Counted from the first letter of the stretch, positions 23,248-42,352 are shown. The stretch is DNA of 64,000 nucleotides from an uncultured Marinoscillum sp. (GCA_902523065.1 CABYXZ010000007.1:6802-70801); one strand, 5' to 3'. Notes: generated by a model not told the origin, from the sequence alone. Numbers and translations are program-made.

Positions 23248-23248
23248 C

Positions 23249-24622: not shown

Positions 24623-24639
24623 TTTCCAATTTGTTGTAA

Positions 24640-24656
24640 ATCTATATCATATAGAT
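24640..24656. promoter_or_regulatory. 17-bp palindrome ATCTATAT-C-ATATAGAT in the divergent sulfatase promoter region
   Basis: Read directly from the sequence. It lies 18-34 nt upstream of the minus-strand sulfatase start (24622) and overlaps a near-consensus -7 box (minus strand TAGATTTA). Confidence 0.25.
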
Positions 24657-24728
24657 AAGAAAAAAAAAGTGAGAAAAAATGTTAAAAGTAGAGTAAAAGA
24701 TTAGATTTATGGTATCAATAAAAATCAA

Positions 24729-26159: not shown

Positions 26160-28311
26160 TAATACTTGTCTTTTTTTGTTCAACTCCATCTAAACTAATA
26201 AGAAAAACGAATTGACCTGTTAGTCTTGACACATCAACAGAGACCTTTGATTTATTTTTAAATTCTTTATTATCAAAAGTTTTACCGGTAACATCAACAA
26301 GTTTGATCTTGATTTCCTTGTAAACTTTATCTAAATGAATATGCAAATTTTTATCAACAGGATTTGGGAATAAACTATAATTTTTAATTTCTTTTCTTTC
26401 AATAGATAAAACTTGATTGTAAGAAATACATTCTGACTGAACTTGTCCACAATCAGGATCACTTATTATCACGTAATAACTTCCAGATTCTTTTGGCTTG
26501 AAAAATCTACTCGTTTCACCTGAAATTGCTTGATTATTTGAACAATCATACCACTGATAATCAGAATCTAGTTGCTCAGCATATAATTTTCCATCTGAGT
26601 CATAAACATTATTAGTCAATTGACCATCTAAAGATAATTCAATTGTAATAATACTATCCATACCATTTTTTGCAACCAATGACGCTGTATAAATTCCACT
26701 CTCAAAATATTCGTTATTATCAGGAGCGATATATGATTCAGAGCAGGTACTTACAGAAATAAAACTAGATGGTGAACTTTGAGCAATATTCCTTCTCTTG
26801 AATTCTAGCTCAAACTGATCAATAATATTAGAGTAATTTGAATCTGAACACCTATTAATTTTTTCATCGTAATCTATCTCATAATCATAAAACTCACAAG
26901 CAATTGTATTTCCATATCTCTCACCTGATCTATAATCCATCTGTACCCATTTTGTATATCTATACCTTTCATCTCTAAGTGAATACCCCATAACTCTTTT
27001 ACCACCTGACATTCTCGTATATTGAGCAAGAGCCGCGTGTCTGACCTTATGGTTCGGGTCAGACATTACTTTTTTTATTGACCTTCCCTCAACTTCACTT
27101 GGTATACTTATACCCGCCAAATCACACAGAGTAGGATAAATATCAAGAAGTTCAACTGGTGAGTTTGTTTTATTGTTTTCTATTCCGTGATCGGGTGAGT
27201 ATATTATCATAGGTGAACTAACTGCCTGCTCAAAATTTGTGTGCTTGATCCATAGACCGTGGTCACCAAGATGCCAACCATGGTCACCCCACAATACAAT
27301 AATTGTGTTATCTGATAATCCAAGATCATCTAGCTTTGACAATAACTTTCCAATCTGCGCATCTACATATGAAACGCAAGCTTTATAACCATGAATCAAT
27401 TCTTTTTGTTTATCAATAGTGATGTTGCCGTTTATTGGAATATCTGAATAACTATTTACAAGTTCATGATTATTGTGAAATGCAATTGATGGTATGCTAC
27501 TGTCTCTATCTTGTTCAGGGTGAATAGAAATATTATTTCTATCATACAGATCCCAATATTTTTTAGGTGCAACAAAAGGAAGATGCGGTTTGGTATATCC
27601 AACAGCTAGAAAAAAAGGTTTTCCAGAGTTTGCAGCCTCTTCCATCTTTATCATAGCGTAGTTTGTCCTTGCTCCGTCAACGTATCCATCATCTGGGAGA
27701 TCTTGATTTCCCTCTGTTGATGGCTTACAAAGTGGGAAAAGCTTTCTTGCCTCTCTCTTTCCGTTGAATGAAGTAATATTATTTGAAGATATGTAACTAT
27801 TATACTGATTAATAGCTTGGTGTACTAATGGATCTTGGTAACCTGATTTTCCAGCATCATTACTAAAGTAGTACTGATTAGGCATTCCTTGTAAAAATTG
27901 AGTTGACCAAGATTTTGAGTCATAGCCGTTATCAACGGACCTACTATCAAATATTTTTCCTAGCCCAACGGAATAATAACCATTATTCTTAAAATGTTGA
28001 GGTAAAGTAACAACATTAGGATTCTCGTCTCTTATTTGAGTTTCTAAATCCCATACTCTTGTATTATCAGGGTATAAACCAGTGAGAAGACTTGCCCTGG
28101 ATGGAGCACAAATAGCTTGTTGGGTAGAAGTATTAAGAAATGATGTGCCCTTTGCTGCTAGTGCATCAATATTTGGAGTAATCATATCCTGGTGACCATA
28201 AGATTTAAACATTGGTTTTAAATCGTCAACTGATATGAAAAGAATATTCTTTTGAGCACTTAAAAATGTTAGAGGAAAAAGGAGAAAAAATGATAGTAAA
28301 AATCTTTTCAT
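26149..28311 (-). CDS. Iduronate-2-sulfatase-like sulfatase with an extra beta-rich module and a T9SS C-terminal sorting domain
   Basis: 720 aa. Motifs NILFISVDDLKP, QQAICAPSRASLLTGLYPD and LWGDHGWHLGDHGLW. The C-terminal 75 aa or so (YSLFPNPVDKNLHIHL...GQFVFLISL...) are typical of a T9SS CTD. Confidence 0.88.
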   Translation of the reverse strand: MKRFLLSFFLLFPLTFLSAQKNILFISVDDLKPMFKSYGHQDMITPNIDALAAKGTSFLNTSTQQAICAPSRASLLTGLYPDNTRVWDLETQIRDENPNVVTLPQHFKNNGYYSVGLGKIFDSRSVDNGYDSKSWSTQFLQGMPNQYYFSNDAGKSGYQDPLVHQAINQYNSYISSNNITSFNGKREARKLFPLCKPSTEGNQDLPDDGYVDGARTNYAMIKMEEAANSGKPFFLAVGYTKPHLPFVAPKKYWDLYDRNNISIHPEQDRDSSIPSIAFHNNHELVNSYSDIPINGNITIDKQKELIHGYKACVSYVDAQIGKLLSKLDDLGLSDNTIIVLWGDHGWHLGDHGLWIKHTNFEQAVSSPMIIYSPDHGIENNKTNSPVELLDIYPTLCDLAGISIPSEVEGRSIKKVMSDPNHKVRHAALAQYTRMSGGKRVMGYSLRDERYRYTKWVQMDYRSGERYGNTIACEFYDYEIDYDEKINRCSDSNYSNIIDQFELEFKRRNIAQSSPSSFISVSTCSESYIAPDNNEYFESGIYTASLVAKNGMDSIITIELSLDGQLTNNVYDSDGKLYAEQLDSDYQWYDCSNNQAISGETSRFFKPKESGSYYVIISDPDCGQVQSECISYNQVLSIERKEIKNYSLFPNPVDKNLHIHLDKVYKEIKIKLVDVTGKTFDNKEFKNKSKVSVDVSRLTGQFVFLISLDGVEQKKTSIIIQ

Positions 28312-28314
28312 ATT

Positions 28315-29970
28315 CTATAATTTGATCTTAATTATATCACTATCTTCAAAACCGAGCCTTGTTGATAATACATAAATATAACGTTTATTCACGATTACTG
28401 GCTCATGATATAACTTCCAGCCATCATCAAGACTAGGATCAAAATCTTCATCAGATATAATGTATCCAATGGAAGAGCCCAAAGTGCTAGATTTTACAGT
28501 GACAACATTATTACTTACAAAAACTTCAGGTTTTAAAGTTTTTGGTTGAACTCCTTTTGGCCACATAATAGATAATAAACTTTTCTCAGGTATGTCTCCT
28601 AAATCATTAATATCATTCTGCCACTTCTTTAGGGCTTGCCTATGAACTTTTATTTCTTTCCTATAATTGGGATCAGCAATAAGGTTCTTTAAGCTATAAG
28701 CATCATCTGACCGGCGGTAAAACTCTTCCTCTGTTTTAGTTTGTCTATACCAATATTTTTGATCTGAATTTAATTTATTTTCATTATAAAGCATGAGCAT
28801 CTCGTTAGTCATGTCTATGTTTTTTCTATATAATACATCTTTGTATGCGGGCCTGTCAGTATGGTAATTTTTTACATAAATAAATTCATCCGATATTACA
28901 CTTCTAACCCTGTCGTAGGTTTCATCAAACCGATCTCCAGAACCAAAAATATAGTCTCTCGGCTTCTCACTTTTTTTATCACCTAGGAAGGGTATTCCTT
29001 GGAAGTGTTCTGGAATACTTATACCAGCAAGAGATAGAATGGTCGGAGCAAAATCAACGAAAGATACTGGTTCCTCAACAAATATTTTTGATTTTACATA
29101 TGGATCTCTTATTATGAGTGGAACTTTTAAGCCTGATTCGTAGTGAGATCTTTTACCTCTCGGTAATGGTCCACCATGATCACTAAAAAAAAATATATAA
29201 GTATTATCTAATAAATTATCAGCTTTTAATTCAATTATTAGCTTACCTACCATTTGGTCTAACAATTCAATATTTGAGTAATTTCTTGCAACATCATTTC
29301 TTACTGTTTCTGTATCTGGAAAGTAAGGAGGTAAGGGTACTTTTTTAGGGTCTACAGTCAATGGCTTATCTCTGTGAAGCCACATTTTTGATTCGTGAGT
29401 AACATCAAAATTAAATACAGAAAAAAAAGGTTGATTTGCTTCTCTATTACTCCAGTGGGCATCATTACCATTCTCATCCCAAGCTGTAACAGGGGCAGCA
29501 AATTGATAGTCCGTTTTAGAGTTATTAGTACAATAATATCCGTTGGCTCTTAAATATTCAGTAAAACACTTTACACTTGGTGGAGTGACAACTGAATGTA
29601 GAGGAATAGAATCACCGTTCACATCAATAGCATTCGATATACCATCATATTCTCTCGAACCCCAACCAAATACATCTTTCCCTGTCCTCATCTGATGAGT
29701 ACCAATTGAGACAGGATACATTCCTGTTATCAGAGAAGACCTTGAAGGACTACAAACCCCAACAGTAGTAAATGACTCAGTAAATATTAAACTTTCAGAT
29801 GCTAGTTTATCTAAATTAGGAGTAATTGCAGTCGAATCTCCATACATAGACAATGTAGGACTAATATCTTCAACAGTAATCCAAAGTATATTTGGTTTTT
29901 GAGATGAGGAAATAAATGGAGTTGATAGAAAGTATATCAACAATAATTTTCTATATATAATTCTAATCAT
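28315..29970 (-). CDS. Formylglycine-dependent sulfatase
   Basis: 551 aa. NILWITVEDISP, signature CSPSRSSLITGMYP, and FFSDHGGPLPRGK. Confidence 0.88.
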   Translation of the reverse strand: MIRIIYRKLLLIYFLSTPFISSSQKPNILWITVEDISPTLSMYGDSTAITPNLDKLASESLIFTESFTTVGVCSPSRSSLITGMYPVSIGTHQMRTGKDVFGWGSREYDGISNAIDVNGDSIPLHSVVTPPSVKCFTEYLRANGYYCTNNSKTDYQFAAPVTAWDENGNDAHWSNREANQPFFSVFNFDVTHESKMWLHRDKPLTVDPKKVPLPPYFPDTETVRNDVARNYSNIELLDQMVGKLIIELKADNLLDNTYIFFFSDHGGPLPRGKRSHYESGLKVPLIIRDPYVKSKIFVEEPVSFVDFAPTILSLAGISIPEHFQGIPFLGDKKSEKPRDYIFGSGDRFDETYDRVRSVISDEFIYVKNYHTDRPAYKDVLYRKNIDMTNEMLMLYNENKLNSDQKYWYRQTKTEEEFYRRSDDAYSLKNLIADPNYRKEIKVHRQALKKWQNDINDLGDIPEKSLLSIMWPKGVQPKTLKPEVFVSNNVVTVKSSTLGSSIGYIISDEDFDPSLDDGWKLYHEPVIVNKRYIYVLSTRLGFEDSDIIKIKL

Positions 29971-29982
29971 ATAAATTATTTT

Positions 29983-30777
29983 CTAATTCTTAAGATAACC
30001 CAAAGAGGATAGAAATTTGTCAACTTCTCTACTTGTTTTAACAAAAAATTCTTGACTATTAAAAAAAGAGTGTCCCTGACCTGGATATTCTATTACATCA
30101 CAGCGTACGCCATATTCTTGAATAGTTTGTTTATACTTTTTGATCTTATTTATAGGTTCCATTTCATCTAAGGATCCATGAAATATAATTGATGGAGGAA
30201 AGTTTTTATCTAAATTATGAATAGGAGAAATATCTAAATTGTATTTACCTGATCTCCTCTTAGAAAAAGCGGAATTAGGCCCTGTGTCAACAATTGGGTT
30301 ATACAAAATTAATCCTTTGACAATGTTACTTCCCACATTCCAAAAAGTAGTAGAAAGAGCTAAAAGACCACCAGCAGAACCTCCACCAACAAATATTTTA
30401 TTTTTATCTATATTAAGTTTTTCAGCATTTAAAAGAATATAATCAATTAGGTCTTTAGCGTCATCACATGATTCAATAGCAGATGTTCCATGTAAACTCT
30501 TAATTCTATAAACGGGTGTTATAGAAATGAAATTTTTAGAGTTAAAATATTTTGCGTGTCTTCTAAATTGATTTTCATACCTTGTATTAAATCCTCCTCC
30601 ATGAAAGAGTATGACAGTGCTATACTTTTCATTTTCATTAAATGAATCTGGTTTATATAATTTAAAATCTAAAGAAATAGAATCTATTTTTTTATATATG
30701 TGTGCTGAAACATTAGACTGAGAAAATGAATTGATACAAGGTGAGAAGAAAAGGAATACAAAAACTAATTTTCCCAT
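29983..30777 (-). CDS. Alpha/beta-hydrolase carbohydrate esterase (candidate acetyl-xylan esterase)
   Basis: 264 aa. Oxyanion motif HGGGF, nucleophile elbow GGSAGG and C-terminal GQGHSF. It overlaps the upstream sulfatase gene by 13 nt. Confidence 0.7.
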   Translation of the reverse strand: MGKLVFVFLFFSPCINSFSQSNVSAHIYKKIDSISLDFKLYKPDSFNENEKYSTVILFHGGGFNTRYENQFRRHAKYFNSKNFISITPVYRIKSLHGTSAIESCDDAKDLIDYILLNAEKLNIDKNKIFVGGGSAGGLLALSTTFWNVGSNIVKGLILYNPIVDTGPNSAFSKRRSGKYNLDISPIHNLDKNFPPSIIFHGSLDEMEPINKIKKYKQTIQEYGVRCDVIEYPGQGHSFFNSQEFFVKTSREVDKFLSSLGYLKN

Positions 30778-32351
30778 ATTACACTTCTCAAGTCTTTAAT
30801 CATCCCCTCCTTAACTTTTTGGTAACTAGCATCAGAGGCATAACTTTTCGTTTCAAGTGGATCAATTTCGTAATCGTATAGCTCTTCCATTACTATCTCG
30901 TCATTATCAAAATCAGATCTATCTTCAAAATCACCAGACACCCAAGCTATATATCTATACTTTTCGTTTCTTACAGCGTATCCCATAAGAGTACAATCAT
31001 CTGGGTATCTACCAATAACACTACGCATCACGTTACATCTTCGCGGGTATTGACTTATTGCAAAGTCTCTTAAATATTCTGATTTTTTTTCAAGGATAGG
31101 AACCAATGAAATACCATCTAAATCGTCAGGTTTTGGAATTCCTGCCAAAGTGCAAACAGTAGGAAATATATCTAATAATTCAACAGGACTGTCATTAACA
31201 AATCCGCCATCTATATCTGGACTTTTAAATATTAAAGGGGTTCTTGTTGCCTCCTCAAAATTTGAGTGTTTATTCCATAGTCCATGGTCACCAAGATGCC
31301 ATCCATGATCTCCGAAAAATACAACCACTGTATTTTCATCCAATCCAGTGGACTCTAAATGGTCAAGTATCATACCAACTTGGGCATCAATAAAAGATAC
31401 AGATGCCATATATCCATGTATAAGCTCTCTTTGTTTGGCCTCATTGACAATTCCGTTTTCATCCATGCTAGGCTCAGTGTCATGATAATTTCTTAGCTCT
31501 CCTGATTGGTGATATGCCTCTGGCGGAGACCCAATTGATTTACTTTGAAATTCAGCAAGTTTTATATCATCTCTTTGATATAGATCCCAATATGTTTTTG
31601 GTGGAGTAAATGGTAAGTGAGGCTTTTGAAAACCAACTGTTAAAAAAAAGTTTTTATTGTTTCTATCAAATTCATTTAATAACTCAATAGTCTTTAGAGT
31701 CGAGGCGCCATCAGCATAAGCATCGTCAGGTACATCTAAGTTTTCAGTTAACGGTCTAAGACCAGCTGATCTCATTACGCTGTTAACTGCAAACCAACCC
31801 CTATCTGCGTTTGGGTCTGCATCGAGAGCTGCCTGTAACGAGTCCCACTTCTTATGAATTTCAGGAGATTGATAGAGATTAGCTGGCATCTTAAACCCTT
31901 CTGCATACTCAAAGTTTTCATTAGCTATAAAAGGCTTTGTCCAAGATAGGGGATCATTATTCTTTGCCCCGTGCATAACTTTACCCATACCAACAGTTTC
32001 GTAACCATTTTCCTTAAAATATTGAGGAATTGTTTTAATATCAGGTCTAATGTCTCTTAGTTTAGTTTGAAGATCCCATATCTTGGTATAGTCTGGACGT
32101 TTTCCTGTTATAAAACTCATCCTTGATGCTGTACATATTGCCTGCTGTGCATATGCCTTAGAAAATAAAACACCTTCGCTAGCTAACTTATCAATATTAG
32201 GAGAGATTATTTCGTTATATCCATAGCTCCCTAGAAGGGGTTTGAGATCATCAACTACAATAAATAAAACATTTTTCCTCTGCGACTTATTCTCATCGTT
32301 ACAACTTAAAAATATCAAGCTCAAAATCAGTATTATATACCTATTAATCAT
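30765..32351 (-). CDS. Iduronate-2-sulfatase-like sulfatase with a variant C-T-A-S-R active-site motif
   Basis: 528 aa and paralogous to the 26149-28311 product and to the N-terminus of the 32348-35827 product (VLFIVVDDLKP, KPHLPFTPPKTYWDLY, FFGDHGWHLGDHGLW). The signature reads QQAICTASRMSF, with codons TGT ACA GCA TCA AGG at 32135-32121. Confidence 0.85.
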   Translation of the reverse strand: MINRYIILILSLIFLSCNDENKSQRKNVLFIVVDDLKPLLGSYGYNEIISPNIDKLASEGVLFSKAYAQQAICTASRMSFITGKRPDYTKIWDLQTKLRDIRPDIKTIPQYFKENGYETVGMGKVMHGAKNNDPLSWTKPFIANENFEYAEGFKMPANLYQSPEIHKKWDSLQAALDADPNADRGWFAVNSVMRSAGLRPLTENLDVPDDAYADGASTLKTIELLNEFDRNNKNFFLTVGFQKPHLPFTPPKTYWDLYQRDDIKLAEFQSKSIGSPPEAYHQSGELRNYHDTEPSMDENGIVNEAKQRELIHGYMASVSFIDAQVGMILDHLESTGLDENTVVVFFGDHGWHLGDHGLWNKHSNFEEATRTPLIFKSPDIDGGFVNDSPVELLDIFPTVCTLAGIPKPDDLDGISLVPILEKKSEYLRDFAISQYPRRCNVMRSVIGRYPDDCTLMGYAVRNEKYRYIAWVSGDFEDRSDFDNDEIVMEELYDYEIDPLETKSYASDASYQKVKEGMIKDLRSVIWEN

Positions 32352-35300
32352 AAATCAGAATTTGTTTCCTCTAAAATATTTTTCATCTTATAATATGCCA
32401 ATTTAGGATTACCAGCTAGATCAAAAATAAATCTAGACTTGTCGGTATGAATGCCAACTCTATCAACTATCCCCCACGTATTAAAAGTGACTAATCCGTT
32501 ATTTTTTTTTGATAATAGAGTTTTTAAAACATCTGAATATGCCTTTGCTTGTATTTCTTGTTTTTGTTTTGTCACCTCACCGAAAATTTTATAATCCATT
32601 TCAGTTATATGAAACTCTAAATTGTTTTGATGAGACCAGTCTATAAGATCTGATAAATATTGAATTTCATTCTCACCGTATTTCATCCTACTAGATAGAT
32701 GTGCCTGCCATCCAATACCGTCTACCCTAAGACCTTTATCTTTCAGATACATAATAGTCTCTTTCACTCTCTCCCACATGACTTCTTCCATTCCACCATG
32801 CTGGTTGAATACCAAATTTATATTTGGAGCATACTTTTGGGCAATTTCAAAAGATCTTGAAATATAAATTGGAGTGCTATTTTTATCGTTGTCTGAGCCA
32901 ATAATTGTCCAAGGGTTTTCCCACTCAGTCACTCCTTTCTTTGGACCGAACCATTCACCATCTCTTGTAATTGTCTCATTAACTACGTCCATCCACTTTA
33001 CGTTAGGATGATTATTAAATCTTTTACATTGTTCTATAAGAAACTCGTTCATTATATTTTCTAGCTCTACAGGTTTTCTGTCATCGTGCTTTGCCCATCT
33101 TGAAGACTGAGGACTAATTGGTCCATGAAGCCTAACGCTGAGGTCATTCTCTTTAGCCATATCAAGAATAGCATCAATTTTAGTCCAATCCCATGTATCT
33201 GGATCAGGATGAACAACAGATTGTTTAACGGCATTTTCAGGAACAGTCATGTTAAAATTATTTGCTAAAATTTTTTCTACGTCCGTATCTAACTGACCAG
33301 ATGAAATTGTTGCACCAAAATAAAAGTTGTCATAATTTTTTTCCGTCAAAATTTCACGGATAGGTTTTTCCTCTGAAACTAATTGAGTTCCTAACTCAAT
33401 CACTGATAGGTCATCAAACCAAGTTCTTCCTGTACCACCATCAACGTACTTTAACAAAGCAATTCGAGCAGATGTGTTTTCAGGACCAGTTTTAAATGTG
33501 GCGGTCACCTCTCCATATTCCGATTTATTATATCTTCTTGTAATATCTTTACCACCATAAAATCTGACTTTCAGAAGTCCAGCTTCATTGTTTTCTGATT
33601 TAATATATGCACTTACTTTATATGTTGTATTTGGTTTTAGACCACTTAATTTCTGAAAAACACCACATTTGGTTCCCTCAAACATAAGAGCACTATTTCC
33701 AGATCTTGAATTATTATTTACTGCATTAATTGGGCATCCTTTTCCTTTATTCCATCCTTTGGTTCCATTCTCAAAACCAGAATTATTTAATAAGTTTTTG
33801 GTAGTCGAGGAATTATTATTCTTTGCTATAGAATTATATCCAACCTCAACTACAGACAAATCATCAAACCAACTTCTTCCAGTTGCTCCTGCTACATATT
33901 TTAATAATGCGATTCGAGCTGAAGTGTTTTCTGGACCCGTTTTAAATGTGACGGTTACCTCTCCATATTCTGATTTATTATATCTCCGTGTAATATCCTC
34001 ACCGCCAAAGAATCTAACTTTAAGAAGGACAGCTTCATTATTCTCGGACTTCATATATGCAGTAACCTTATATTCGGTATTTGGTTTTAAACCGTTTATA
34101 TTTTGAAATACACCACATCTAGTTCCCTCAAACCTTAGAGCACTTTCACCAGACCTTGCATTATTGTTAACAGAATAAATGGGACACCCCTTGTTCTCAT
34201 TCCATCCCTGTGTTCCATTTTCAAAACCAGGATTTTTTAAAAGGTTAATTGAAGAATTTACATTATTAGAATTATTGCTTTCTTTTGATCTTTCAATTTT
34301 TTGAGTCGCTTTAAATTTGTTTTTTTCATTCGACTGCTTCTCAAAAAAATTATTTAAAGAAGATTGAAACTCTTCAGCTAGTGCTCTTTCTATACCTACT
34401 ATGTTAACTGTTTCATCTGGATCAGATTTATAATCATATAATTCTTTTATTATAATATCCTGTTCATTTATAGAGTATCTGTTCTTATACCATGCAACAT
34501 ATCTATACCTATCATTTCTTAATGCGTATCCCATCACATTTCCTCTAGGATACTGACTAATTGCATAATCCTTAACTTTTGATTTACCATTTAATAATGT
34601 TACTAAACTTTTTCCCTGTAAATGATCCGGTGATTTTAGGCCTGATAATTCTACCAGAGTAGGAAAGACATCGATAAATTCTGTTGGAGAAGAATTAAAA
34701 TTATTTTTTTTAGTTTCAGGGTCAACAATTATTAAGGGTGATCTTGTCGCCTGTTCAAAGTTTGAATGTTTAGCCCACTGTCCATGGTCTCCTAGGTGCC
34801 AACCATGATCTCCCCACAAAACAATAGTTGTATTTTCAAGTAAATTATTTTCTTTGACTGCTTTGAGAATTTTACCAACCTGAGCATCAATGTAAGAGAC
34901 ACATGCGTAATAACCGTGAATCAGCTCCCTTTGTTTATCTGTATTTATAAGTCCGTTTTGGTCAAAAGATTCTGGGATATCAGTATACGATCTCATCTCT
35001 CCATTATTATTATATACCAACTTAACAGTTCCTCTAGCCCACTTCTGATATCCAGCTAACCGAACTTGACTTCTGTCATACATATCCCAATATTTTTTGG
35101 GAGCAACAAACGGCAAGTGAGGTTTTTGAAAACCAACCGCAATAAAAAATGGTTCATTGTTATCTGCAAGTTTATTAATTTGATTAACAGCTTCAAGTGC
35201 TAAGGCACCATCAAAATAACCATCATCTGAAATATCAAAAGATTCGGTAGACGGTTTGTATTTACTTCTTAGATACTGCCACATCTCTCTATTTGGGATT

Positions 35301-35827
35301 CCATCAGCCAATGCTTGATCTCTTAACTGAGAAAGAATCCTTTTATTTTCAGTAGACTGAAATCCAGTAATATTATTCCCGTGCACTGGATGATCAACAT
35401 TTACTCTAATGTAAGGAACTGACCAAGATGGTTTATCCAAACCCTTATCAACACTTCTGTTGTCAAATATTTTACCCATACCAACAGTTTTATAACCGTT
35501 ATTTTTAAAGTGTTGAGGTAAGGTTAAAATATTAGGGTTTCTATCCCTCATCTGAGTTTCAAGATCCCAGACTTCAGTTAAATCAGGTCTTAGACCAGTC
35601 AATAAGCTTACTCTTGATGGAGCACAAATAGCCTGCTGAACATGAGCATTTGTAAATGTTGTACCTAATGAAGCCAACTCATCAATATTTGGAGTTTTTG
35701 CAAAGGAATCGCCATAGACTCCTAATGATGGCTTGAGATCATCAACGGCAATAAATAATATGTTCTTCTTTGAGTGTGATGTAATAGAGATAAATAAGAA
35801 TAAAAAAACGAGATAGATATTTTTCAT
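32348..35827 (-). CDS. Multidomain fusion: iduronate-2-sulfatase-like sulfatase, 2 x CBM4/9/22-like modules, and a divergent GH10-like glycoside hydrolase
   Basis: 1159 aa with a signal peptide. The sulfatase domain covers roughly aa 20-480 (NILFIAVDDLKP, QQAICAPSRVSLLTGLRPD, LWGDHGWHLGDHGQW). An Asn/Ser-rich linker follows. Two 135-aa repeats begin at aa 529 and aa 679 and start LLxNxGFENGTxGW. The C-terminal domain of about 330 aa carries FNMTVPENAVK, MDVVNETI, GIGWQAHL and HITEMDY. It overlaps the next gene by 4 nt. Confidence 0.85.
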   Translation of the reverse strand: MKNIYLVFLFLFISITSHSKKNILFIAVDDLKPSLGVYGDSFAKTPNIDELASLGTTFTNAHVQQAICAPSRVSLLTGLRPDLTEVWDLETQMRDRNPNILTLPQHFKNNGYKTVGMGKIFDNRSVDKGLDKPSWSVPYIRVNVDHPVHGNNITGFQSTENKRILSQLRDQALADGIPNREMWQYLRSKYKPSTESFDISDDGYFDGALALEAVNQINKLADNNEPFFIAVGFQKPHLPFVAPKKYWDMYDRSQVRLAGYQKWARGTVKLVYNNNGEMRSYTDIPESFDQNGLINTDKQRELIHGYYACVSYIDAQVGKILKAVKENNLLENTTIVLWGDHGWHLGDHGQWAKHSNFEQATRSPLIIVDPETKKNNFNSSPTEFIDVFPTLVELSGLKSPDHLQGKSLVTLLNGKSKVKDYAISQYPRGNVMGYALRNDRYRYVAWYKNRYSINEQDIIIKELYDYKSDPDETVNIVGIERALAEEFQSSLNNFFEKQSNEKNKFKATQKIERSKESNNSNNVNSSINLLKNPGFENGTQGWNENKGCPIYSVNNNARSGESALRFEGTRCGVFQNINGLKPNTEYKVTAYMKSENNEAVLLKVRFFGGEDITRRYNKSEYGEVTVTFKTGPENTSARIALLKYVAGATGRSWFDDLSVVEVGYNSIAKNNNSSTTKNLLNNSGFENGTKGWNKGKGCPINAVNNNSRSGNSALMFEGTKCGVFQKLSGLKPNTTYKVSAYIKSENNEAGLLKVRFYGGKDITRRYNKSEYGEVTATFKTGPENTSARIALLKYVDGGTGRTWFDDLSVIELGTQLVSEEKPIREILTEKNYDNFYFGATISSGQLDTDVEKILANNFNMTVPENAVKQSVVHPDPDTWDWTKIDAILDMAKENDLSVRLHGPISPQSSRWAKHDDRKPVELENIMNEFLIEQCKRFNNHPNVKWMDVVNETITRDGEWFGPKKGVTEWENPWTIIGSDNDKNSTPIYISRSFEIAQKYAPNINLVFNQHGGMEEVMWERVKETIMYLKDKGLRVDGIGWQAHLSSRMKYGENEIQYLSDLIDWSHQNNLEFHITEMDYKIFGEVTKQKQEIQAKAYSDVLKTLLSKKNNGLVTFNTWGIVDRVGIHTDKSRFIFDLAGNPKLAYYKMKNILEETNSDL
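33389..34243 (-). repeat. Tandem in-frame duplication (2 x 405 nt, period 450 nt) encoding the two CBM-like modules
   Basis: Unit 1 is 33839-34243 and unit 2 is 33389-33793, separated by 45 nt. As a landmark, tcatcaaacc occurs at 33411 and 33861. By hand count about 109 of 135 encoded residues are identical. Confidence 0.85.
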
Positions 35828-35884
35828 CTATAAGTAAAGAAATAAATTGGTTAACTAAAGTAATTTAAACTTAAGAAATTATCC

Positions 35885-37516
35885 TTATTCTTCTTCAGCA
35901 GTATAAACGTCAGGCTGTTCTATTCTCACATCATTTATAACCCACTGCCCGTTCTGCTTACCTGTCTGAGAATCTTTTCTTCTCATTCTCCAATTTAAAT
36001 AAACCTTATCACCAGTGATAGTGTTTAAGTTAATCGACTTGGTATATTTCTGAGCAGGACCGCTTCCAGCATTCCAATTAGCACCTAACCAATCAGCACC
36101 CTCTAAGCCTAATCCAGTGAAAGGAACCCATTCAGTATCATTCCAGGTACCTGAAGATATATTAGTAGTGTCCTCACCATAATAAAATGCTCTATCGTAC
36201 TTATTCATATATGCTGGTCCATATCCAATCACTTCACCAAATACAACAGTTGTTGGTTTTGTTTTATCAATAGAAGATAAGTCTACCACTCTTACAACTG
36301 ATTCGTCTGAGTCACCGACATATGCACCACCCATCCATCTTCTCATGCTACTCCACTTACCAGCAACAGCCTTCATTTTCTTCCACGTACTACCATCACC
36401 AACTGTACCAGCAATCACGTAAGAGCTCCAGCCCTCAACTGAACTTGGTGGAGCGGAATCTCCAGGACCATTGATTAAATCTTCAAAAACTACAGCAGAT
36501 CTATTCTCTACCTTTATTGTTAAAACTTCAGGAAAATCAAGAGAAATTCCACCAGCATTAGTAGGAGTTAATCCAATTTTATAATCTCCCTCAGGAAGAT
36601 TAGCGTCAGCAGCAATAGTTATTTCGCCTGCTGAACCCATACTAAAAAAATTCTTGAAATTATCTAACGCCGCAGGTAATATAATTTCCCAAGATGCAGC
36701 TGTCATATCACTAAGAACAGGGGGGTAACTTGTGTATGCCGTGTAAGGAGATAATGTTACTCTAGTTAAAGCAGTTGCACCATCTAACTGCAATAAACTT
36801 AGTGTTGGAGAAGGTCCAACATTTATTGTTAATAGATCTGTTGCCACAACAGCTCCGAGGTTGCTACCTACTTGTACAGATAACTTAACTGAGCCTGAGT
36901 TTGCAGCCTTTACTTTTGAGATGACACCTGATTTTTCGTTAATAGTATATGTGTCTGGAGCATCAATCAACTGATATGTCACCATGTTAACAACACCTGA
37001 GCCAGATAAATCAGTTATAGAGGCAGTTGCAATCTCTCCAATTTGAAGTGAACCTACATCAACACTTGCGTTATCAATATTTATTTGTATTGGGACTGGT
37101 AAAACTTTCATTGTAACTGCGTCAGTGTAATTAGCAACTCCACCTGCATTATCAACTGAAACTGATATCATATAATTTCCTTCAGAAAGACCTCCCGATG
37201 AATTGTCGTAAGATATAACACCTGATGGTTTATCAATTGAAAATTTAGAGTTATCGTAAGAACTCTCTGCAGGAGCCTTAACTGTATCAATTTTAAAAAC
37301 AATTCCAGTCTTAATACTGTTGTCTACACTTGGTGTATCAGTAGATATAACGTCTAGCAATGGATAAACATCTACATCAGAGTAGGTGATTTTACCGTCA
37401 TTATCAGAAAGTGAACCAGGAGTAAACTCCACAAAATCTAATTCAACTCTTTCCTCACATGAAAGTATGAATAAAGAAAATATTAAAAACTTAAAACTAT
37501 TTATGATGTATCTCAT
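35885..37516 (-). CDS. PUL-encoded surface lipoprotein, candidate surface glycan-binding protein (Ig-like repeats plus a C-terminal beta-sandwich)
   Basis: The start MRYIINSFKFLIFSLFILSC at 37516 gives a lipobox, whereas the track start at 37537 would overlap susD. It has repeated xSGVISxx / AGEITI motifs and lies immediately downstream of susD, as SusE/F-like SGBPs do. There is no recognisable catalytic motif. Confidence 0.5.
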   Translation of the reverse strand: MRYIINSFKFLIFSLFILSCEERVELDFVEFTPGSLSDNDGKITYSDVDVYPLLDVISTDTPSVDNSIKTGIVFKIDTVKAPAESSYDNSKFSIDKPSGVISYDNSSGGLSEGNYMISVSVDNAGGVANYTDAVTMKVLPVPIQINIDNASVDVGSLQIGEIATASITDLSGSGVVNMVTYQLIDAPDTYTINEKSGVISKVKAANSGSVKLSVQVGSNLGAVVATDLLTINVGPSPTLSLLQLDGATALTRVTLSPYTAYTSYPPVLSDMTAASWEIILPAALDNFKNFFSMGSAGEITIAADANLPEGDYKIGLTPTNAGGISLDFPEVLTIKVENRSAVVFEDLINGPGDSAPPSSVEGWSSYVIAGTVGDGSTWKKMKAVAGKWSSMRRWMGGAYVGDSDESVVRVVDLSSIDKTKPTTVVFGEVIGYGPAYMNKYDRAFYYGEDTTNISSGTWNDTEWVPFTGLGLEGADWLGANWNAGSGPAQKYTKSINLNTITGDKVYLNWRMRRKDSQTGKQNGQWVINDVRIEQPDVYTAEEE

Positions 37517-37526
37517 ATTTATCAAT

Positions 37527-39056
37527 TTAATCGTCAATTAGGTCGTTAGTTGTAACCTCTCCAAGAGGAATAGGTAATTTCATTATCCTTGTCTCATCAG
37601 TAATTAATGTTAGATCATACTGATTTTTATTTGGATCATTATTATGAGGTAATATGGTGTTATTAAGAAAATAATTATAACCCCTTCTTCTGTTGTTGTG
37701 AGAATCTTCACCCTCACCTAGTAACTCAAATCTATACTCTCTCATAATTGCGTCTCTGAAAGATGCCTGACCACCCTGATAACTGATGTGAGGGGTTAAC
37801 CCTACTCTATCAAGAACCTGCTCAACGTATCCCATTGCCTCAGCATCTTTAGATAACTCATTAGAAATTTCAGCAAGCATTAGTAATAAATCAGCATACC
37901 TATACATAATATAATTTTGGCTGTTATACTGAGCTGAATGACTTTTATCTTTTTCAGCAAACTTGAAAAGATATGGGTGGGATGCTCTAAAGTTATTTCT
38001 ACCAGTCGAAGGATATACTTTAACTTCTGCATTATTGTCTGCCCTCGTGTAATAGTGAAGGTAAGTACCATCAAGTCTAGGATCAGCAGGATAATTAGCA
38101 ACGTGGCTATCGTAAACGCTAGCATGAACTGAGAACCATCCAAAATGCATTCCCGTCTTATATTTCCAAGGAGTATAATTTCTTCCAAGCTGGCTATTAC
38201 TTGCTATCTCACTTAATTGATATTCAAATATCGATTCTCTGGAGTTTTCACCTGATTGTGTGAACAATTCACTGTAGTTAGGATGAAGAGAATACCTGCC
38301 TGAGTTCTTAACTTTTATTGCTTCATCATAAGCTAACTGCCAGTAATTACTTGAGCCATCTCCAAGATCTGGGTTTGTAGCAAGTGTCATATAAACTTTA
38401 GCTAAAAGCATATTAGCAGCAAACTTCAGAGGATAGCCAATACCTAGCGACTCATTCATTAATGATTCAGCTTGCTGAGCGTCACTTATGATTTGAGCGT
38501 AAACATCTTTTGCTGGAGATTTAGCTTTATGTAAATTATTATTATCCGGCAAAACAGTCCATAAAGGTATATCTCCCCATAACCTTACAAGCTGAAAATA
38601 TGAAAATGCTCTAAGGAAGTATGCATGCCCAGCAACGTTATCAAATACGGCATCGTTACCGGTAGTTGTATACTGGATTGCGCCATTACATCTTGATATA
38701 ACTGCATAATACTCACTCCACATTGCCTCTGAGTCCGCGTCGTAAGTTGGATTTAGAGAGAAAAGGTTAGCATTATTAGGGTTAGTAATTCTTTGACCTT
38801 GCTTTCCTGTTATAAACAATCCTGAAAATCCGTTAATAACAAAAATTCCTCTTTCTTTAGCATTGTATGCAGTGAGTCCAGCATATATTCCTTTAGCACT
38901 TGCCTCAGCGGTTTGAGGATCTTCATAAACGGTTTTATCAAGAAAAGGTGCAACCTCCTCAAGCTCACAAGAACTTGAAAATATTAATAAGAAAGCTAAG
39001 AAAGGTATTTTTAAATTTTTCATAGTTTGCAGTGTTATCAATTTTAAAAATTTCAT
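37527..39056 (-). CDS. susD: SusD/RagB-family outer-membrane glycan-binding lipoprotein
   Basis: 509 aa. Lipobox SSSC (alternative start MKNLKIPF at 39023), FLRAFSYFQLVRLWGDIPL and YRYADLLLMLAEI. It lies 5 nt downstream of susC. Confidence 0.9.
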   Translation of the reverse strand: MKFLKLITLQTMKNLKIPFLAFLLIFSSSCELEEVAPFLDKTVYEDPQTAEASAKGIYAGLTAYNAKERGIFVINGFSGLFITGKQGQRITNPNNANLFSLNPTYDADSEAMWSEYYAVISRCNGAIQYTTTGNDAVFDNVAGHAYFLRAFSYFQLVRLWGDIPLWTVLPDNNNLHKAKSPAKDVYAQIISDAQQAESLMNESLGIGYPLKFAANMLLAKVYMTLATNPDLGDGSSNYWQLAYDEAIKVKNSGRYSLHPNYSELFTQSGENSRESIFEYQLSEIASNSQLGRNYTPWKYKTGMHFGWFSVHASVYDSHVANYPADPRLDGTYLHYYTRADNNAEVKVYPSTGRNNFRASHPYLFKFAEKDKSHSAQYNSQNYIMYRYADLLLMLAEISNELSKDAEAMGYVEQVLDRVGLTPHISYQGGQASFRDAIMREYRFELLGEGEDSHNNRRRGYNYFLNNTILPHNNDPNKNQYDLTLITDETRIMKLPIPLGEVTTNDLIDD

Positions 39057-39061
39057 CTTGT

Positions 39062-42000
39062 TTATAAGTTAAAGTTTAGTCCAATTGTAAATTTACGAGC
39101 ACTTGGCTGGCCGTTCCAGTCTACTCCATTTCTTAATCCATCGTACAGAAAGCTTGTAACTTCTGGATTGTATCCACTATATCCTGTGAATGTGAATAGA
39201 TTTTGAGCAGAGAGATAAATATTTATTCTATCAAATTGATAGCTTAGATTAATATTACTTATCCTGAGAAAACTTCCGTCCTCAATTATCCAATCAGGCA
39301 TCGCTATCTGACCATTTGTTGTGTAACCAATTCTTGGATAGCTATTTGATGTCCTCTCTGGTCTCCAAGCATTATTATAAGCAGCAGTTGTTATGTTACT
39401 CCATGAGATACCTTCAGGTGTTGCGAGCTGCAATAAATTTCCATTTGCTATGTCATTTCCATATACCCCATTAGCTAGGACTCTTAAACTTAAATTCTTA
39501 TAAGATAGTTCTAGATTAATACCGTATACAAAATCTGGATTTGGGTTACCTATGATTGTCCTGTCCTGTAAATCTATCACTCCGTCACCATTCTGATCAA
39601 CTATCCTGTAGTCACCTGCCCAAAAAATAGGTGGATTATCATCAGAAGGATCGTAAATTCTTGCTATACCACCTCCAGGAAGAGCATCGTTAACTTGGTA
39701 TATTCCATCTGTTTCAAAGCCATAAAAAAGACTAGTCTCTTCTCCTTCAATAAATACATTAGGTGCATATTTGAATATGTTACCTCTACTGACATTATTA
39801 CCTTCGTAAAATGCCTTTTGCTGGTAAGAGCCGTTAAGTAAAATACCTGAGGCAGGAAGTCCAAGATTTTTAAGTTTAGTCTTATTAAATGCGATGTTAC
39901 CACCAACCGATAAGGTGAAATCATTGTTATCAACTAGTATTGCATTTAGGCTTGCCTCAATACCTCTATTCTCAATTTCACCTCTATTTACTTGAACATT
40001 TAAAAATCCAGATGATAAAGGTATAGGAACATTTTGAAGTAAATCTTTGGTAAGCTTACTGTAAACATCAACAGTAGCAGTTAGTCTACTCTCAAAGAAA
40101 GCAAAATCTAAACCTAAATTAACCTGCTCTGTAGTCTCCCACTTAAGGTCAGGGTTAGCAATATTCTGTAGAAATATTGGAATGTCTACACCATTATTTG
40201 CATTACCATATAAAACATTTGTGTTACTTGCGTAATTAGACAGCGTAGCGTAAGGTCTTATTCCATGGTTACCAATTTGACCCCATCCAGCCCTTAATTT
40301 TAAATCATCAAAAACATTCAAGTTATCAATGAAAGATTCTTGCACTAATCTCCAAGCAAGTGAGAAAGATGGGAAATATCCGTATCTATTTTCTTGTGAA
40401 AATTTAGAGACCCCATCAACTCTTAGTGTGGACGTTAATACATACTTATTCATGAAAGTATAGTTTGCCCTAGCTAAATAAGATATAAGTCTCGTATCTG
40501 ATGCGTCCGTAGCAAGCGGAGTTGAATTAAGCTGGCCTAAAAGAGGTTGCTGAGTTGTTAAGGCAGTAGTAACAAAATCCTCGACAGCAAATATTTTAGT
40601 ATCGACATCTCTCGAGTCCCAAGTCACACCAGCAACTGCATTTAATCTATGCTTTCTATTAAAAGATCTATTAAATCTAAGAAGATTATTTACCTGGTAG
40701 GACTTCGTGTTGAGATTAGAAATCTGAAGGGCACCGTTAGCAGCTTTTCCTTGGAAGGTATTTAATCCCCAGAACCTTCTTCTCTCCTTACTTCTCATAT
40801 TTCCACCAGCTCTCAATTCATACTTAAGACCTTTAACTGGTAAGTCATATGTCAATGTAACTGAACCAATAAATCTACTCTCCTCAGATTTATCTTCAAA
40901 ATCTTCTACCCAACCTAATGGGGTTGTGGTGTTTAGCGCGTTCCCGTATTCCTCCATCTCGTCATTGGTGATAGGAACATTTGCTAATGTACTTCTTACA
41001 GCACTTTGATTTGCACCAATCAAGTCACCTGACTCAGCAAAGTCTAAATTGCTATAAAATCCACTAAACCTTGCGTCTACTTTTAATTTATCTGTAATCT
41101 TTTTATCGAAATTATATCTTATATCTCCACTTTGAAATCTTGAGTTCTCAACAAGTCCTTTCTGATCTGTATAACCAAATGATAAGTAATAACTTCCTTC
41201 GCTATCTCCTCCAGATACCGATCCACCAAAATTATAGTGCTCACTAATATTGTAGATTTCATCCTGCCAGTCATGTAAAACAGCAGGAGTCGAAGCCAAA
41301 GTTCCCCCTTCAAGTATTGGATAAACCTTATCTCCGTCAATGTGATACCTCACATTATTGTAGTTCATTGCCTGAACTTCATTCTGATATCTTGCAAAAT
41401 CTAATCCACTCAAAACATCGTATCTCTGATCCTCCATCATTCTGACACCCGAGTTTACAAATAAATCAATTTTTCTTTTTCCGGTAAGTCCTTTTTTCGT
41501 TGTTATCAAAACAACTCCATTAGCTCCTCTAGATCCATAGATAGCTGTTGCAGATGCATCCTTAAGAACTTCAATACTTTCAATATCACGAGGGTTTAAC
41601 CCATTAAGTCCGTTCTGTACTTCTTGACCTGAGTTACCAATTCCACCAGCTGGATTTACATCCTCTCCTGCAGATGAGATGATGACTCCATCAACAACAT
41701 ATAGTGGTTCGTTGTTTCCTCTAAGGCTATTGGTACCTCTAATTCTTACACTGATACCTGAACCTGGGGACCCTGAGTTCTGTGTTACTTGGACACCAGC
41801 AGCTCTTCCTTGTAATATCTGATCTACAGTAGCAAACTCTCTAGCTTCGTTCTCGGATAATTCCACTGATGATACAGCACCAGTCAGATCGCTTTTCCTA
41901 ACTGTTCCATAACCAACAACGACAACCTCTTCTAATTCCTGTAGGTCTTGGGCAAGGGTTATGTCTATAACTGATCTTGCACCTACCGATATCTCTTGAG

Positions 42001-42229: not shown

Positions 42230-42352
42230 TTAGTCATTTAGTTAGTTTCAATTTGTTGACTTAGTTTGCGAAAGTCAACTAATTTTTAGCTTTAAACTAA
42301 AAATTTGATATTGAATTTATAACATATATGTTACAAAAGCAATAATTATCTC

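Follow-up and report, generated by a model that had tools for sequence, protein, structure and literature searches.

A sulfatase-CBM-GH10 fusion protein in a marine Bacteroidota PUL of the type predicted for sulfated xylan

Within a 64,000-nt stretch of DNA from an uncultured Marinoscillum sp. (GCA_902523065.1 CABYXZ010000007.1:6802-70801), here called the window, Pfam searches delineated a PUL at 21943..45984 (-). Its genes are arranged in the order canonical GH10 (44839-45984), MFS_2 transporter, GH43, SusC, SusD, a 550-aa lipoprotein that is probably a surface glycan-binding protein, the sulfatase-GH10 fusion studied here, S1 sulfatase, esterase, S1 sulfatase, S1_7-like sulfatase with a T9SS tail, S1 sulfatase (+), S1 sulfatase, and GH10 with a T9SS tail. 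From SusC to the T9SS-tailed GH10, neighboring genes are spaced by -13 to +57 nt, except for 106 nt beside the lone (+) sulfatase gene (24729), and the stop of the fusion gene overlaps the start of the next sulfatase by 4 nt. The SusC/SusD pair adjoins co-oriented CAZymes and sulfatases, as is characteristic of a PUL, and the arrangement is operon-like and conserved. A GH16 gene was found nearby in the window (50346-51494).

The fusion gene is a single ATG-started ORF of 1159 aa at 32348..35827 (-), without interruption in the ORF listing of the window. A sequence-only reading had described it as a 1159-codon fusion of an iduronate-2-sulfatase-type sulfatase, two CBM-type repeats and a GH10 with both catalytic glutamates that deviates from canonical GH10 at HGPIS and NQH, and this description was borne out in each of its parts. 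All motifs quoted there were found in the translation (DDLKP, QQAICAPSRVSLLTGLRPD, GDHGWHLGDHG, PENAVK, VVNET, GWQAHL, ITEMD, NQH and HGPIS), and the three profiles that it had named, PF00884, PF02018 and PF00331, each matched far above the curated Pfam cut-offs. The protein starts with a signal peptide read from the sequence (MKNIYLVFLFLFISITSHS, aa 1-19; 35771..35827 (-)), which is of the SPI type and has no lipobox cysteine; the N termini of homologs are of the same kind, typically ...SAQ/KKN. A Pfam search for a T9SS C-terminal domain in the fusion protein found none. The SPI signal peptide, together with the missing lipid anchor and T9SS tail, points to a periplasmic location.

The sulfatase module (aa 20-500; 34328..35770 (-)) was assigned to the formylglycine-dependent S1 sulfatases by Pfam, PDB and Foldseek comparisons. 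PF00884 matched at aa 21-396 (E 5.2e-48) and SGSH_C, PF16347, at aa 346-493 (4e-15); with a Foldseek TM of 0.85 to PDB 6HHM, both profiles indicate the alkaline-phosphatase-like sulfatase fold. The best solved relative is this same structure, P18_S1_7 (1.4e-88, 37% identity), followed by iduronate-2-sulfatase (5FQL/6IOZ, 1e-67). It is these best matches, both of them S1_7, that suggest the placement in SulfAtlas S1_7, whose members also include CgsB, and the module is best termed S1_7-like. The catalytic set D29, D30, C68, R72, K119, H237, D340, H341 and K353 is intact and invariant in an alignment of 33 diverse fusions sharing 47-78% identity with the query. The formylglycine motif C-A-P-S-R (C68 to R72; 35612..35626 (-)) lies within QQAICAPSRVSLLTGLRPD and conforms to C/S-x-P/A-x-R, with C68, P70 and R72 invariant across the 33 aligned fusions.

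One catalytic position differs. Alignment to 6HHM and 5FQL places Asp122 (35462..35464 (-)) at the 'HisA' position, which is His138 in human iduronate-2-sulfatase, and this Asp is likewise invariant in the 33-fusion alignment. We take the metal- and sulfate-binding residues of iduronate-2-sulfatase to be D45, D46, R88, K135, H138, H229, D334, H335 and K347; their counterparts D29, D30, R72, K119, H237, D340, H341 and K353 are present and invariant in the fusions, and Asp122 is the equivalent of HisA. Asp occupies the HisA position in 68 standalone-size and 22 fusion-size ORFs, and His in 38 ORFs. Judged from these sequences, Asp-for-HisA is a trait of a sulfatase subclade that includes many standalone sulfatases, and we know of no assayed member of it. 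Genes for FGE or anSME were absent from the 64-kb window.

An Asn/Ser/Lys-rich low-complexity linker (aa 501-526; 34250..34327 (-)) follows the sulfatase, with AF2 pLDDT below 50 at aa 512-527. It leads into two modules of the CBM_4_9 type, a superfamily that spans CAZy CBM4/9/16/22, of which repeat 1 (aa 527-668; 33824..34249 (-)) was recognized as a beta-sandwich from Pfam PF02018 and the AF2 model, and repeat 2 (aa 677-818; 33374..33799 (-)) is its tandem duplicate. They open with NLLKNPGFENGTQGW at aa 529 and NLLNNSGFENGTKGW at aa 679. PF02018 matched in two stretches (62.5 bits vs a cut-off of 25.9), the best of which lies in repeat 2 at aa 677-786, and both modules are all-beta in the AF2 model. 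The repeats share 77% protein identity over 142 aa and 80% DNA identity at a spacing of 450 nt. Among the solved structures searched, the modules come closest in sequence to the N-terminal part of 4Q8K ('alginase', 3.7e-9), to 8XMZ and to Man5A modules such as 2ZEX (1e-4), the latter being presumably CBM16; no CBM22 or CBM4 match was found there.

The C-terminal part (aa 826-1154; 32366..33352 (-)) is a divergent GH10 module of clan GH-A with a (beta/alpha)8 fold, as recognized by Pfam, PDB alignment and AF2. PF00331 covers aa 833-1149 (profile positions 8-309 of 311, E 1e-42), PDB GH10 xylanases align end to end (e.g., 4L4O, 2e-23), and the AF2 model shows the alternating beta/alpha pattern with pLDDT mostly 85-97. 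The acid/base E951 and the nucleophile E1076 are invariant; solved xylanases have their catalytic residues at the positions of N950-E951 and T1075-E1076-M-D1078. Invariant in the 33-fusion alignment are furthermore N865, K868, H901, Q1041, H1043 and W1118, besides N950, E951 and E1076. The fusion GH10 thus shares with canonical endo-beta-1,4-xylanases (4L4O; the window GH10 at 44839-45984) the (beta/alpha)8 fold, DVVNE, ITExD, ENxxK, the His of HTLVWH, QxH and the C-terminal WG Trp, whereas its identity to them is only ~22-30% and several active-site motifs differ. HGPISPQ (aa 901-907; 33107..33127 (-)) stands in place of the canonical HTLVWHxQ, so that the -1 Trp is missing, and is kept across the GH10 subclade. 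In the alignment, NQH (aa 1008-1010; 32798..32806 (-)) replaces NDY, turning the +1 Tyr into His, and GWQAH replaces G[ILMF]QxH. WENPW (aa 969-973; 32909..32923 (-)) lies in a loop insertion past the acid/base strand, corresponds to a gap in canonical GH10s, and is invariant among the 33 aligned fusions. The canonical xylan subsite set is therefore incomplete: ENAVK is kept at -2, no Trp stands at -1, and His takes the place of Tyr at +1.

With 22-26% identity to the window's other two GH10s, and PDB GH10 matches that all stay at or below 30% identity and include no subclade member, the module appears to be a family member in a divergent subclade, for which, given the loss of the -1 Trp and the +1 Tyr, neither endo-1,4-beta-xylanase specificity nor xylanase activity is assured. 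This subclade is sharply set apart from canonical xylanases, with 80 representatives at E<=1e-30 and then a drop to ~30% identity. The same substitutions also occur in sulfatase-free members, namely standalone forms of ~380 aa, T9SS-tailed forms and a GH16-GH10-GH9 protein. We found no biochemical characterization of the subclade in the literature searched. Its member fused to GH16 and GH9 hints at other beta-glycans.

Such a long ORF could be an artefact, arising from misassembly across the tandem repeat or from read-through of two to three separate genes. The ORF does hold a tandem repeat, one relative at 97% identity (P0016) falls short of this length by exactly 150 aa and has a single hybrid repeat, and a Polaribacter MAG has the sulfatase and GH10 parts in different frames with a 10-nt overlap. 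However, the repeats are just 80% identical in DNA, which marks them as a diverged tandem duplication and not as an exact repeat confusing an assembler. The 1159-aa length is common to 14 clusters at 98-99% identity in the protein database search, and to 12 of the 15 members listed of a 90%-identity cluster of 480 members from many assemblies; recovered independently so often, the reading frame is not a chimera. Fusions with 0, 1, 2 or 3 CBMs occur in 17 independent genomes, and in CBM-less forms the sulfatase is joined straight to the GH10, which makes the fusion independent of the repeat. A chimeric misassembly was accordingly not supported, an artefact is effectively refuted, and the ORF is a genuine gene for a single protein.

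In a search of 5.8 billion proteins, all of the best 120 matches (120/120) were sulfatase+GH10 fusions with 0, 1 or 2 CBMs. Among 80 species-level genome loci, 17 carried the single-ORF fusion, hence at least 17 genomes, all from several orders of Bacteroidota; this was the outcome of the survey of homologs that the sequence-only reading had proposed. The module order was always sulfatase to GH10. Both catalytic sets are invariant in the 33 fusions, and at 47-78% identity this indicates that both halves are under purifying selection as enzymes. Identities of the sulfatase and GH10 modules to the query drop together across loci (85/74, 78/69, 65/62, 51/53 and 49/46%), a parallel fall that fits the inheritance of a single fusion as a whole. 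In CBM-less forms, ~5 residues separate the BLAST-aligned sulfatase and GH10 segments, and at the join of one such form AF2 places a C-terminal helix and a short linker of low confidence. The PUL synteny is kept as well, in loci L001-L007, L011, L014, L019, L078 and L009, and the block SusC-SusD-lipoprotein-fusion-S1-esterase-S1-S1(CTD)-S1 is conserved over a range that takes in Cytophagales, Lentimicrobiaceae and Rikenellaceae. The fusion adjoins the xylan core GH10-MFS_2-GH43 in L001, L019 and L009, the last of which is the Polaribacter locus with the two modules in separate overlapping frames.

The architecture, implied by the sequence-only reading to be unusual or unreported, is in fact neither: beyond the counts of matches and genomes given above, Krüger et al. 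2019 (PMC6794258) named 'a sulfatase domain-containing GH10' as the hallmark of one type of putative sulfated-xylan PUL. It has thus been known in silico since 2019 as a sulfated-xylan PUL marker and is common in marine Bacteroidota. The same joining of sulfatase and GH10 in one polypeptide occurs in PULs of North Sea Formosa, Aurantivirga and Polaribacter MAGs (PMC6794258; Avci et al. 2020, PMC7242417; Kappelmann et al. 2018, PMC6298971), which, like the window PUL, contain SusC/D, further sulfatases and xylan-type GHs. Sulfated xylan was independently predicted as their substrate, and their SusC/D were expressed in late bloom phases, as evidenced by metaproteomic detection (PMC6794258; PMC7242417; PMC6298971). 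The window PUL matches the published pattern, as besides the fusion it contains five other sulfatases, two other GH10s and a GH43. It differs from 'pattern 1' in that GH3 is absent from the PUL and GH43 present instead, and in the five additional sulfatases and the esterase. The window protein itself differs in its Flammeovirgaceae-like (Cytophagales) host and in the two CBM_4_9 modules inserted between the enzymes; CBM-less homologs of Flavobacteriaceae are 47-51% identical to it. The published description of the North Sea fusions is an annotation, without sequence-level or biochemical analysis. In line with the sequence-only reading, which knew of no characterized enzyme of sulfatase-CBM-GH10 architecture, we found no biochemical characterization of one, no assayed member of the sulfatase+GH10 family, and no structurally defined natural microalgal sulfated xylan in the literature searched.

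Two characterized enzymes are informative for comparison. P18_S1_7 (PDB 6HHM) is an endo xylose-2-sulfate sulfatase, acting on sulfated xylose inside a chain, and shares the CxPxR motif and metal/sulfate-binding residues with the fusion sulfatase. In contrast to the multi-domain fusion, it is a standalone 475-aa enzyme of an ulvan PUL, and its HisA position is occupied by His (GKVYH), that of the fusion by Asp122 (GKIFD). S1_7 is polyspecific, covering iduronate-2-sulfate, kappa-carrageenan galactose-4-sulfate and xylose-2-sulfate (PMC9825549), so that 37% identity to P18 leaves the specificity unfixed. The second enzyme, the rhamnosidase/sulfatase P36 GH78+S1_25 of Formosa agariphila (PDB 6HR5; Reisky et al. 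2019, as related in PMC8360166), also joins an S1 sulfatase and a GH in one polypeptide, and its activities are successive on the same sulfated sugar. It differs in combining a GH78 exo-rhamnosidase with an S1_25 exo sulfatase for ulvan, and no CBMs are reported for it. That a single chain can couple the removal of sulfate to the cleavage of a glycoside has thus already been demonstrated (PMC8360166; PDB 6HR5), which leaves novelty of this principle in the fusion unsupported.

Starting from the domain identities, the intact and conserved catalytic residues, the conserved fusion and gene neighborhood and the sorting signals, all of which are directly supported, we infer a substrate, a sulfate position, an order of reactions, a periplasmic site and a passage between active sites. 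We consider it reasonably probable (about 0.6) that the fusion is a true bifunctional enzyme from a PUL type conserved in marine Bacteroidota and predicted for sulfated xylan, and that it desulfates and cleaves imported sulfated xylo-oligosaccharides in the periplasm. The two T9SS-tailed enzymes, the GH10 and the S1_7-like sulfatase, would make the first cuts and desulfations extracellularly, and SusC/SusD with the 550-aa lipoprotein would bind and import the sulfated xylo-oligosaccharides. In the periplasm, the S1_7-like sulfatase of the fusion would take off a sulfate ester, most likely at O2 of in-chain xylose by analogy with P18_S1_7, its closest characterized relative, and iduronate-2-sulfatase. 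The tethered divergent GH10 would then hydrolyze the beta-xylosidic backbone made accessible, while the two CBM_4_9 modules may hold the chain, handing the product of one active site to the other. The inter-domain geometry of the two AF2 models is not confident (pTM 0.50 and 0.60) and leaves such channeling unsupported. Degradation down to xylose would be left to the other sulfatases and the esterase, together with the canonical GH10, the MFS_2 symporter and a cytoplasmic GH43. It counts against this explanation that periplasmic enzymes do not usually carry CBMs and that the window encodes no formylglycine-generating enzyme.

The order of reactions might also be the opposite, the remodeled GH10 being a sulfate-tolerant or sulfate-requiring endo-xylanase that cuts the still-sulfated chain before the sulfatase trims the products, in keeping with the modified subsite suggested by the sequence-only reading. 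The family-wide invariant changes at -1 and +1 (HGPISPQ for HTLVWHxQ; NQH for NDY), the Trp-rich WENPW by the acid/base strand and the extra conserved basic residues K913, R917, K963 and R1034 of the fusion family favor such an order. We nevertheless regard it as unlikely, since members of the GH10 subclade bear the same substitutions in the sulfatase-free proteins (~380-aa standalone, T9SS-tailed and GH16-GH10-GH9), so that the remodeling either came before the pairing with a sulfatase or is unrelated to it, and since the -2 triad E-N-x-x-K, which binds free xylose hydroxyls, is kept in the fusion. The recurrence of the fusion beside the canonical GH10-MFS_2-GH43 xylan core in widely separated lineages, the activity of the closest characterized sulfatase on xylose-2-sulfate, and the conserved catalytic and -2 subsite residues of the GH10 argue against a substrate other than xylan, be it another sulfated beta-linked glycan such as a xylose-containing heteropolymer, a mixed-linkage beta-1,3/1,4 polymer or a glucan, for which the 'GH10' would have a divergent specificity. 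We deem this quite improbable, although the sharp separation of the subclade from canonical xylanases (80 representatives at E<=1e-30, then ~30% identity), its member fused to GH16 and GH9, the GH16 gene at 50346-51494 and the polyspecificity of S1_7 (PMC9825549) point in that direction.

Compared with periplasmic desulfation followed by backbone cleavage as set out above, a more specific proposal is tentative and in our view rather doubtful: combining an Asp-for-HisA S1_7-like sulfatase with a GH10 without the -1 Trp and +1 Tyr but with WENPW, the fusion could be a dedicated machine for a sulfated xylose-rich microalgal glycan, its GH10 recognizing or needing a sulfated or otherwise substituted residue. 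If this were true, a new GH10 specificity would emerge, and with it the structure of the natural 'sulfated xylan' eaten by bloom-associated Bacteroidota.

The protein encoded at 32348..35827 on the minus strand is the product of one ATG-initiated ORF of 1159 aa according to the ORF listing, and all motifs quoted in the sequence-only reading were found in its translation. The assignment of sulfatase, CBM and GH10 domains made there was right as well, as all modules scored far above the curated Pfam thresholds: Sulfatase (PF00884, aa 21-396, E 5.2e-48) with SGSH_C, the C-terminal subdomain of the sulfatase (aa 346-493), CBM_4_9 in two stretches (62.5 bits vs a cut-off of 25.9), and Glyco_hydro_10 (PF00331, aa 833-1149, E 1e-42, profile positions 8-309 of 311). 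AlphaFold2 yielded good per-domain models (mean pLDDT 81 for the fusion and 86 for a CBM-less homologue), with low-confidence linkers and no confident inter-domain geometry or juxtaposition of active sites (pTM 0.50 and 0.60, respectively). In Foldseek searches with the whole fusion model, the top 50 matches were sulfatases only, and none was a structural neighbour of the CBM or GH10 modules; relatives of these modules were found by sequence searches instead.

The CBM repeats (aa 527-668 and aa 677-818) are 77% identical in protein and lie in tandem with a spacing of 450 nt, and a chimeric misassembly across them had been named as one of the findings that would speak against the fusion. This was not borne out, and a misassembly or frameshift was rejected on three grounds: DNA identity between the repeats is 80%, fusions lacking CBMs exist, P0105 among them, and the 1159-aa protein was recovered many times independently. 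Near-identical proteins of exactly this length fall into 14 clusters of their own (98-99%) from different assemblies; in a 90% cluster of 480 member sequences, 12 of the 15 members listed have this length, too. In the CBM-less fusions, only ~5 residues separate the aligned sulfatase and GH10 segments; both enzymes are joined directly, and the fusion is therefore independent of the repeat. It is thus very improbable that the long ORF is an artefact.

Two related sequences deviate in length or frame. P0016, a homologue with 97% identity and 1009 aa, is exactly 150 aa shorter and has a single hybrid CBM repeat, the N-terminal two-thirds of which resemble repeat 1 and the C-terminus repeat 2. Unequal recombination between the tandem repeats would explain this, as would a collapse during assembly of the P0016 contig; the shortening has no bearing on the protein in the window. 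In locus L009 from a Polaribacter sp. MAG (9992-12974), sulfatase and GH10 are two ORFs in different frames with an overlap of ~10 nt, either because the fusion is naturally split there or because this MAG contains a frameshift error.

The sequence-only reading knew of no characterised enzyme with this architecture. The architecture is common, the best 120 matches of the protein search all being sulfatase-GH10 fusions (by length class, 28 without CBM, 49 with one and 40 with two), and it had already been reported in silico as "sulfatase domain-containing GH10" (Krüger et al. 2019, PMC6794258). In marine metagenomes the fusion is abundant, its clusters comprising 480, 375, 211 and 170 member sequences. 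Cultivated bacteria that encode homologues include Reichenbachiella faecimaris, R. carrageenanivorans and Marinoscillum sp. MHG1-6. Scanning one genome per species, a single-ORF fusion was verified in 17 of the 80 best loci, all from Bacteroidota. Matches in Kiritimatiellales, Pontiella and Opitutales that had seemed to be full-length did not withstand the ORF-level check, as they were either stacked paralogues of the sulfatase or involved a separate GH10 that is unrelated. A look-up of the exact protein sequence gave no recorded entry. The nearest relatives in the species collection came from MAGs of uncultured Flammeovirgaceae (77-78%) and, at 73%, from a Marinoscillum single-cell genome, and the 90% cluster of a 98%-identical protein contains a member labelled Flammeovirgaceae bacterium. 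The architectures found were S1-GH10, S1-CBM-GH10, S1-CBM-CBM-GH10, S1-GH10-CBM and S1-CBM-CBM-GH10-CBM. The sulfatase always precedes the GH10, and the identities of both modules to the query drop in parallel across loci, a pattern consistent with one fusion event, after which both modules were passed on together and CBMs were added. For P0056, a homologue of 1302 aa, precomputed Pfam annotation adds BD-FAE, Abhydrolase_3, Peptidase_S9 and DLH to sulfatase and GH10; the esterase, a separate gene in the window, would there be fused into one polypeptide in another lineage.

The fusion is the seventh gene of a PUL at 21943-45984. It is preceded by a canonical GH10 (44839-45984), an MFS_2 transporter, GH43, SusC, SusD and a 550-aa lipoprotein (35885-37537, minus strand), and followed by an S1 sulfatase (30765-32351), the start of which overlaps the fusion's stop by 4 nt, a BD-FAE-type esterase (29983-30777), a further S1 sulfatase, an S1_7-like sulfatase with a T9SS tail (26149-28311), two more S1 sulfatases, the first on the plus strand, and finally a GH10 with a T9SS tail. 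The genes are co-oriented and tightly packed, with gaps of -13 to +57 nt from SusC to the last gene, save for a 106-nt gap flanking the single plus-strand sulfatase gene. The order SusC-SusD-lipoprotein-fusion-S1-esterase-S1-S1(CTD)-S1 recurs in loci of Marinoscillum, Flammeovirgaceae, Roseivirgaceae, Lentimicrobiaceae, Rikenellaceae and other Bacteroidota, and in L009 and a further locus, L019, the fusion region directly follows GH10-MFS_2-GH43. The lipoprotein directly after SusD, with a signal cleaved between LFILSC and EE and without Pfam match, lies where a surface glycan-binding protein is usually encoded and probably fulfils this role for the locus, with a fold not yet described; it occupies the same position in related PULs at 30-78% identity. 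Within the window, we found neither FGE nor anSME for the six sulfatases of the PUL, and no HTCS, AraC or SusR-type regulator in or beside it, so that sulfatase maturation and regulation must depend on genes located elsewhere in the genome. A scan for sigma-70 promoters and terminators was uninformative (61 sites vs 67.5 expected), the consensus being ill-suited to Bacteroidota.

At the start of the window lies a separate cluster for sugar utilisation that has no relation to the fusion (310-4796, minus strand, and 5030-12055). In it, a second SusC/SusD pair is followed by genes for an NAD-dependent epimerase/dehydratase family protein (PF01370/PF16363), a galactokinase, a pair of SnoaL-like proteins, a GH20 hexosaminidase and an amidotransferase resembling GlmS. 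Upstream of the PUL (46198-51494, minus strand) lie genes for DUF285, SnoaL-like, GSDH-type (PQQ) sugar dehydrogenase, MFS transporter and GH16 proteins, the last of which carries an InlB-B-repeat-like domain.

Among solved structures, 6HHM is nearest to the sulfatase module (37% identity, E 1.4e-88, Foldseek TM 0.85), and human iduronate-2-sulfatase (IDS) comes next. The enzyme in 6HHM, P18_S1_7 from Formosa agariphila, is an endo-acting sulfatase for xylose-2-sulfate (PMC9096561, PMC9825549). In an alignment of 33 fusions, 47-78% identical to the query, D29, D30, C68-x-P70-x-R72, K119, H237, D340, H341 and K353 are invariant. The same is true for Asp122 (35462-35464), which occupies the position of HisA, the catalytic His that S1 sulfatases normally have there (His138 in IDS; GKIFD vs GKVFH in IDS and GKVYH in P18). 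In contrast, the adjoining paralogue at 30765-32351 retains His (GKVMH), while the T9SS-tailed paralogue at 26149-28311 has Asp, too. Asp was the commoner form in the 80 fetched genome loci (90 ORFs, 68 of them relatives of standalone size, vs 38 with His). Asp-type sulfatases reach freshwater Chitinophagaceae, Bacteroidales and Kiritimatiellales. To our knowledge, no S1 sulfatase with HisA replaced by Asp has been characterised.

Over its full length, the GH10 module can be aligned with GH10 xylanases of known structure such as 4L4O (DVVNE to DVVNE, ITEMD to ITELD), and in the alignment of fusions N865, K868, H901, N950-E951 (acid/base), Q1041, H1043, E1076 (nucleophile), D1078 and W1118 are invariant. 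Judged by these residues, both the sulfatase and the GH10 half look like working enzymes. The module (32366-33352) belongs to a sharply delimited subclade, with 80 representatives at E<=1e-30, the traits of which were read from an alignment of ~85 library representatives that replaced noisy regex motif counts. Canonical GH10, including the one at 44839-45984, has HTLVWHxQ at the -1 subsite, whereas the subclade has H-[GAS]-P-x-[SG]-P-Q; at the +1 subsite, Y-N-D-Y is replaced by N-Q-H-G, and before strand 7 G-[ILMF]-Q-x-H by G-W-Q-A-H. The loop after the acid/base strand contains an insertion with W-E/Q-N-P-W that is absent from canonical GH10. GH10 structures generally have a Trp at the -1 and a Tyr at the +1 subsite, and in the alignment both are replaced in the subclade. 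These departures are clade traits and not decay. The subclade (HxPxxPQ, WENPW insertion, NQHG, GWQAH; proteins P0136-P0200) is apparently without functional characterisation.

In the reading we prefer (probability about 0.6), the fusion would be a bifunctional enzyme of the periplasm, in which desulfation of imported sulfated xylo-oligosaccharides precedes their cleavage by GH10. With its SPI-type signal peptide and without a lipobox Cys or T9SS domain, the fusion is predicted to be periplasmic. T9SS tails are borne by the separate GH10 and the separate S1_7-like sulfatase, which is 49% identical to the fusion's N-terminus; these two are presumably extracellular. SusC/D would import sulfated xylo-oligosaccharides into the periplasm, where the S1_7-like module would remove a sulfate ester, most plausibly xylose 2-O-sulfate, and the tethered GH10 could next cut the exposed backbone, with the CBMs raising the local substrate concentration. 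Here we infer substrate, sulfate position, reaction order and compartment, as well as any channelling.

The order of reactions might also be reversed, with a sulfate-tolerant GH10 acting before the sulfatase. A GH10 subsite modified for a sulfated xylosyl residue had been proposed from the sequence, and the deviations at the -1 and +1 subsites are real. However, the same subclade exists without sulfatases, in standalone proteins of ~380 aa, in T9SS-tailed forms and in the GH16-GH10-GH9 protein P0156 (1441 aa). As it is not confined to sulfatase fusions, the idea that these subsites evolved for sulfated xylose is weakened, and we regard the reversed order as unlikely. A sulfated glycan other than xylan as the substrate appears somewhat less likely still.

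In bloom-associated marine Bacteroidota, most PULs were predicted for four substrate classes, the fusion's PUL type among them (PMC6794258), and SusC/D of the same PUL class were detected in late bloom phases (Avci et al. 2020, PMC7242417; Kappelmann et al. 2018, PMC6298971). Desulfation and cleavage by one chain, as proposed from the sequence, has a characterised precedent in the GH78+S1_25 protein of F. agariphila (PDB entry 6HR5, under the name 'Alpha-L-rhamnosidase/sulfatase (GH78)'), an experimentally supported sulfatase-GH fusion acting on one sugar (PMC8360166). Fucoidan and Verrucomicrobiota papers retrieved as GH10 leads were word-start artefacts (GH107, GH106, GH109). For sulfatase-GH10 proteins, no biochemistry was found in the literature searched, which omits most subscription journals, so that this absence is not proof. 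What is new in the fusion is the lineage and the two-CBM variant of an enzyme kind known from annotation and biochemically uncharacterised. Its interest lies not in the fusion itself but in an ecologically abundant enzyme without functional data that combines two non-canonical active-site variants. The fusion is the signature gene of a PUL whose natural substrate is uncharacterised, as are all of its enzymes. A biochemical study would define marine 'sulfated xylan', show if the covalent coupling of desulfation and cleavage brings a kinetic advantage, and assign functions to the divergent GH10 subclade and to the large Asp-for-His sulfatase subclade.
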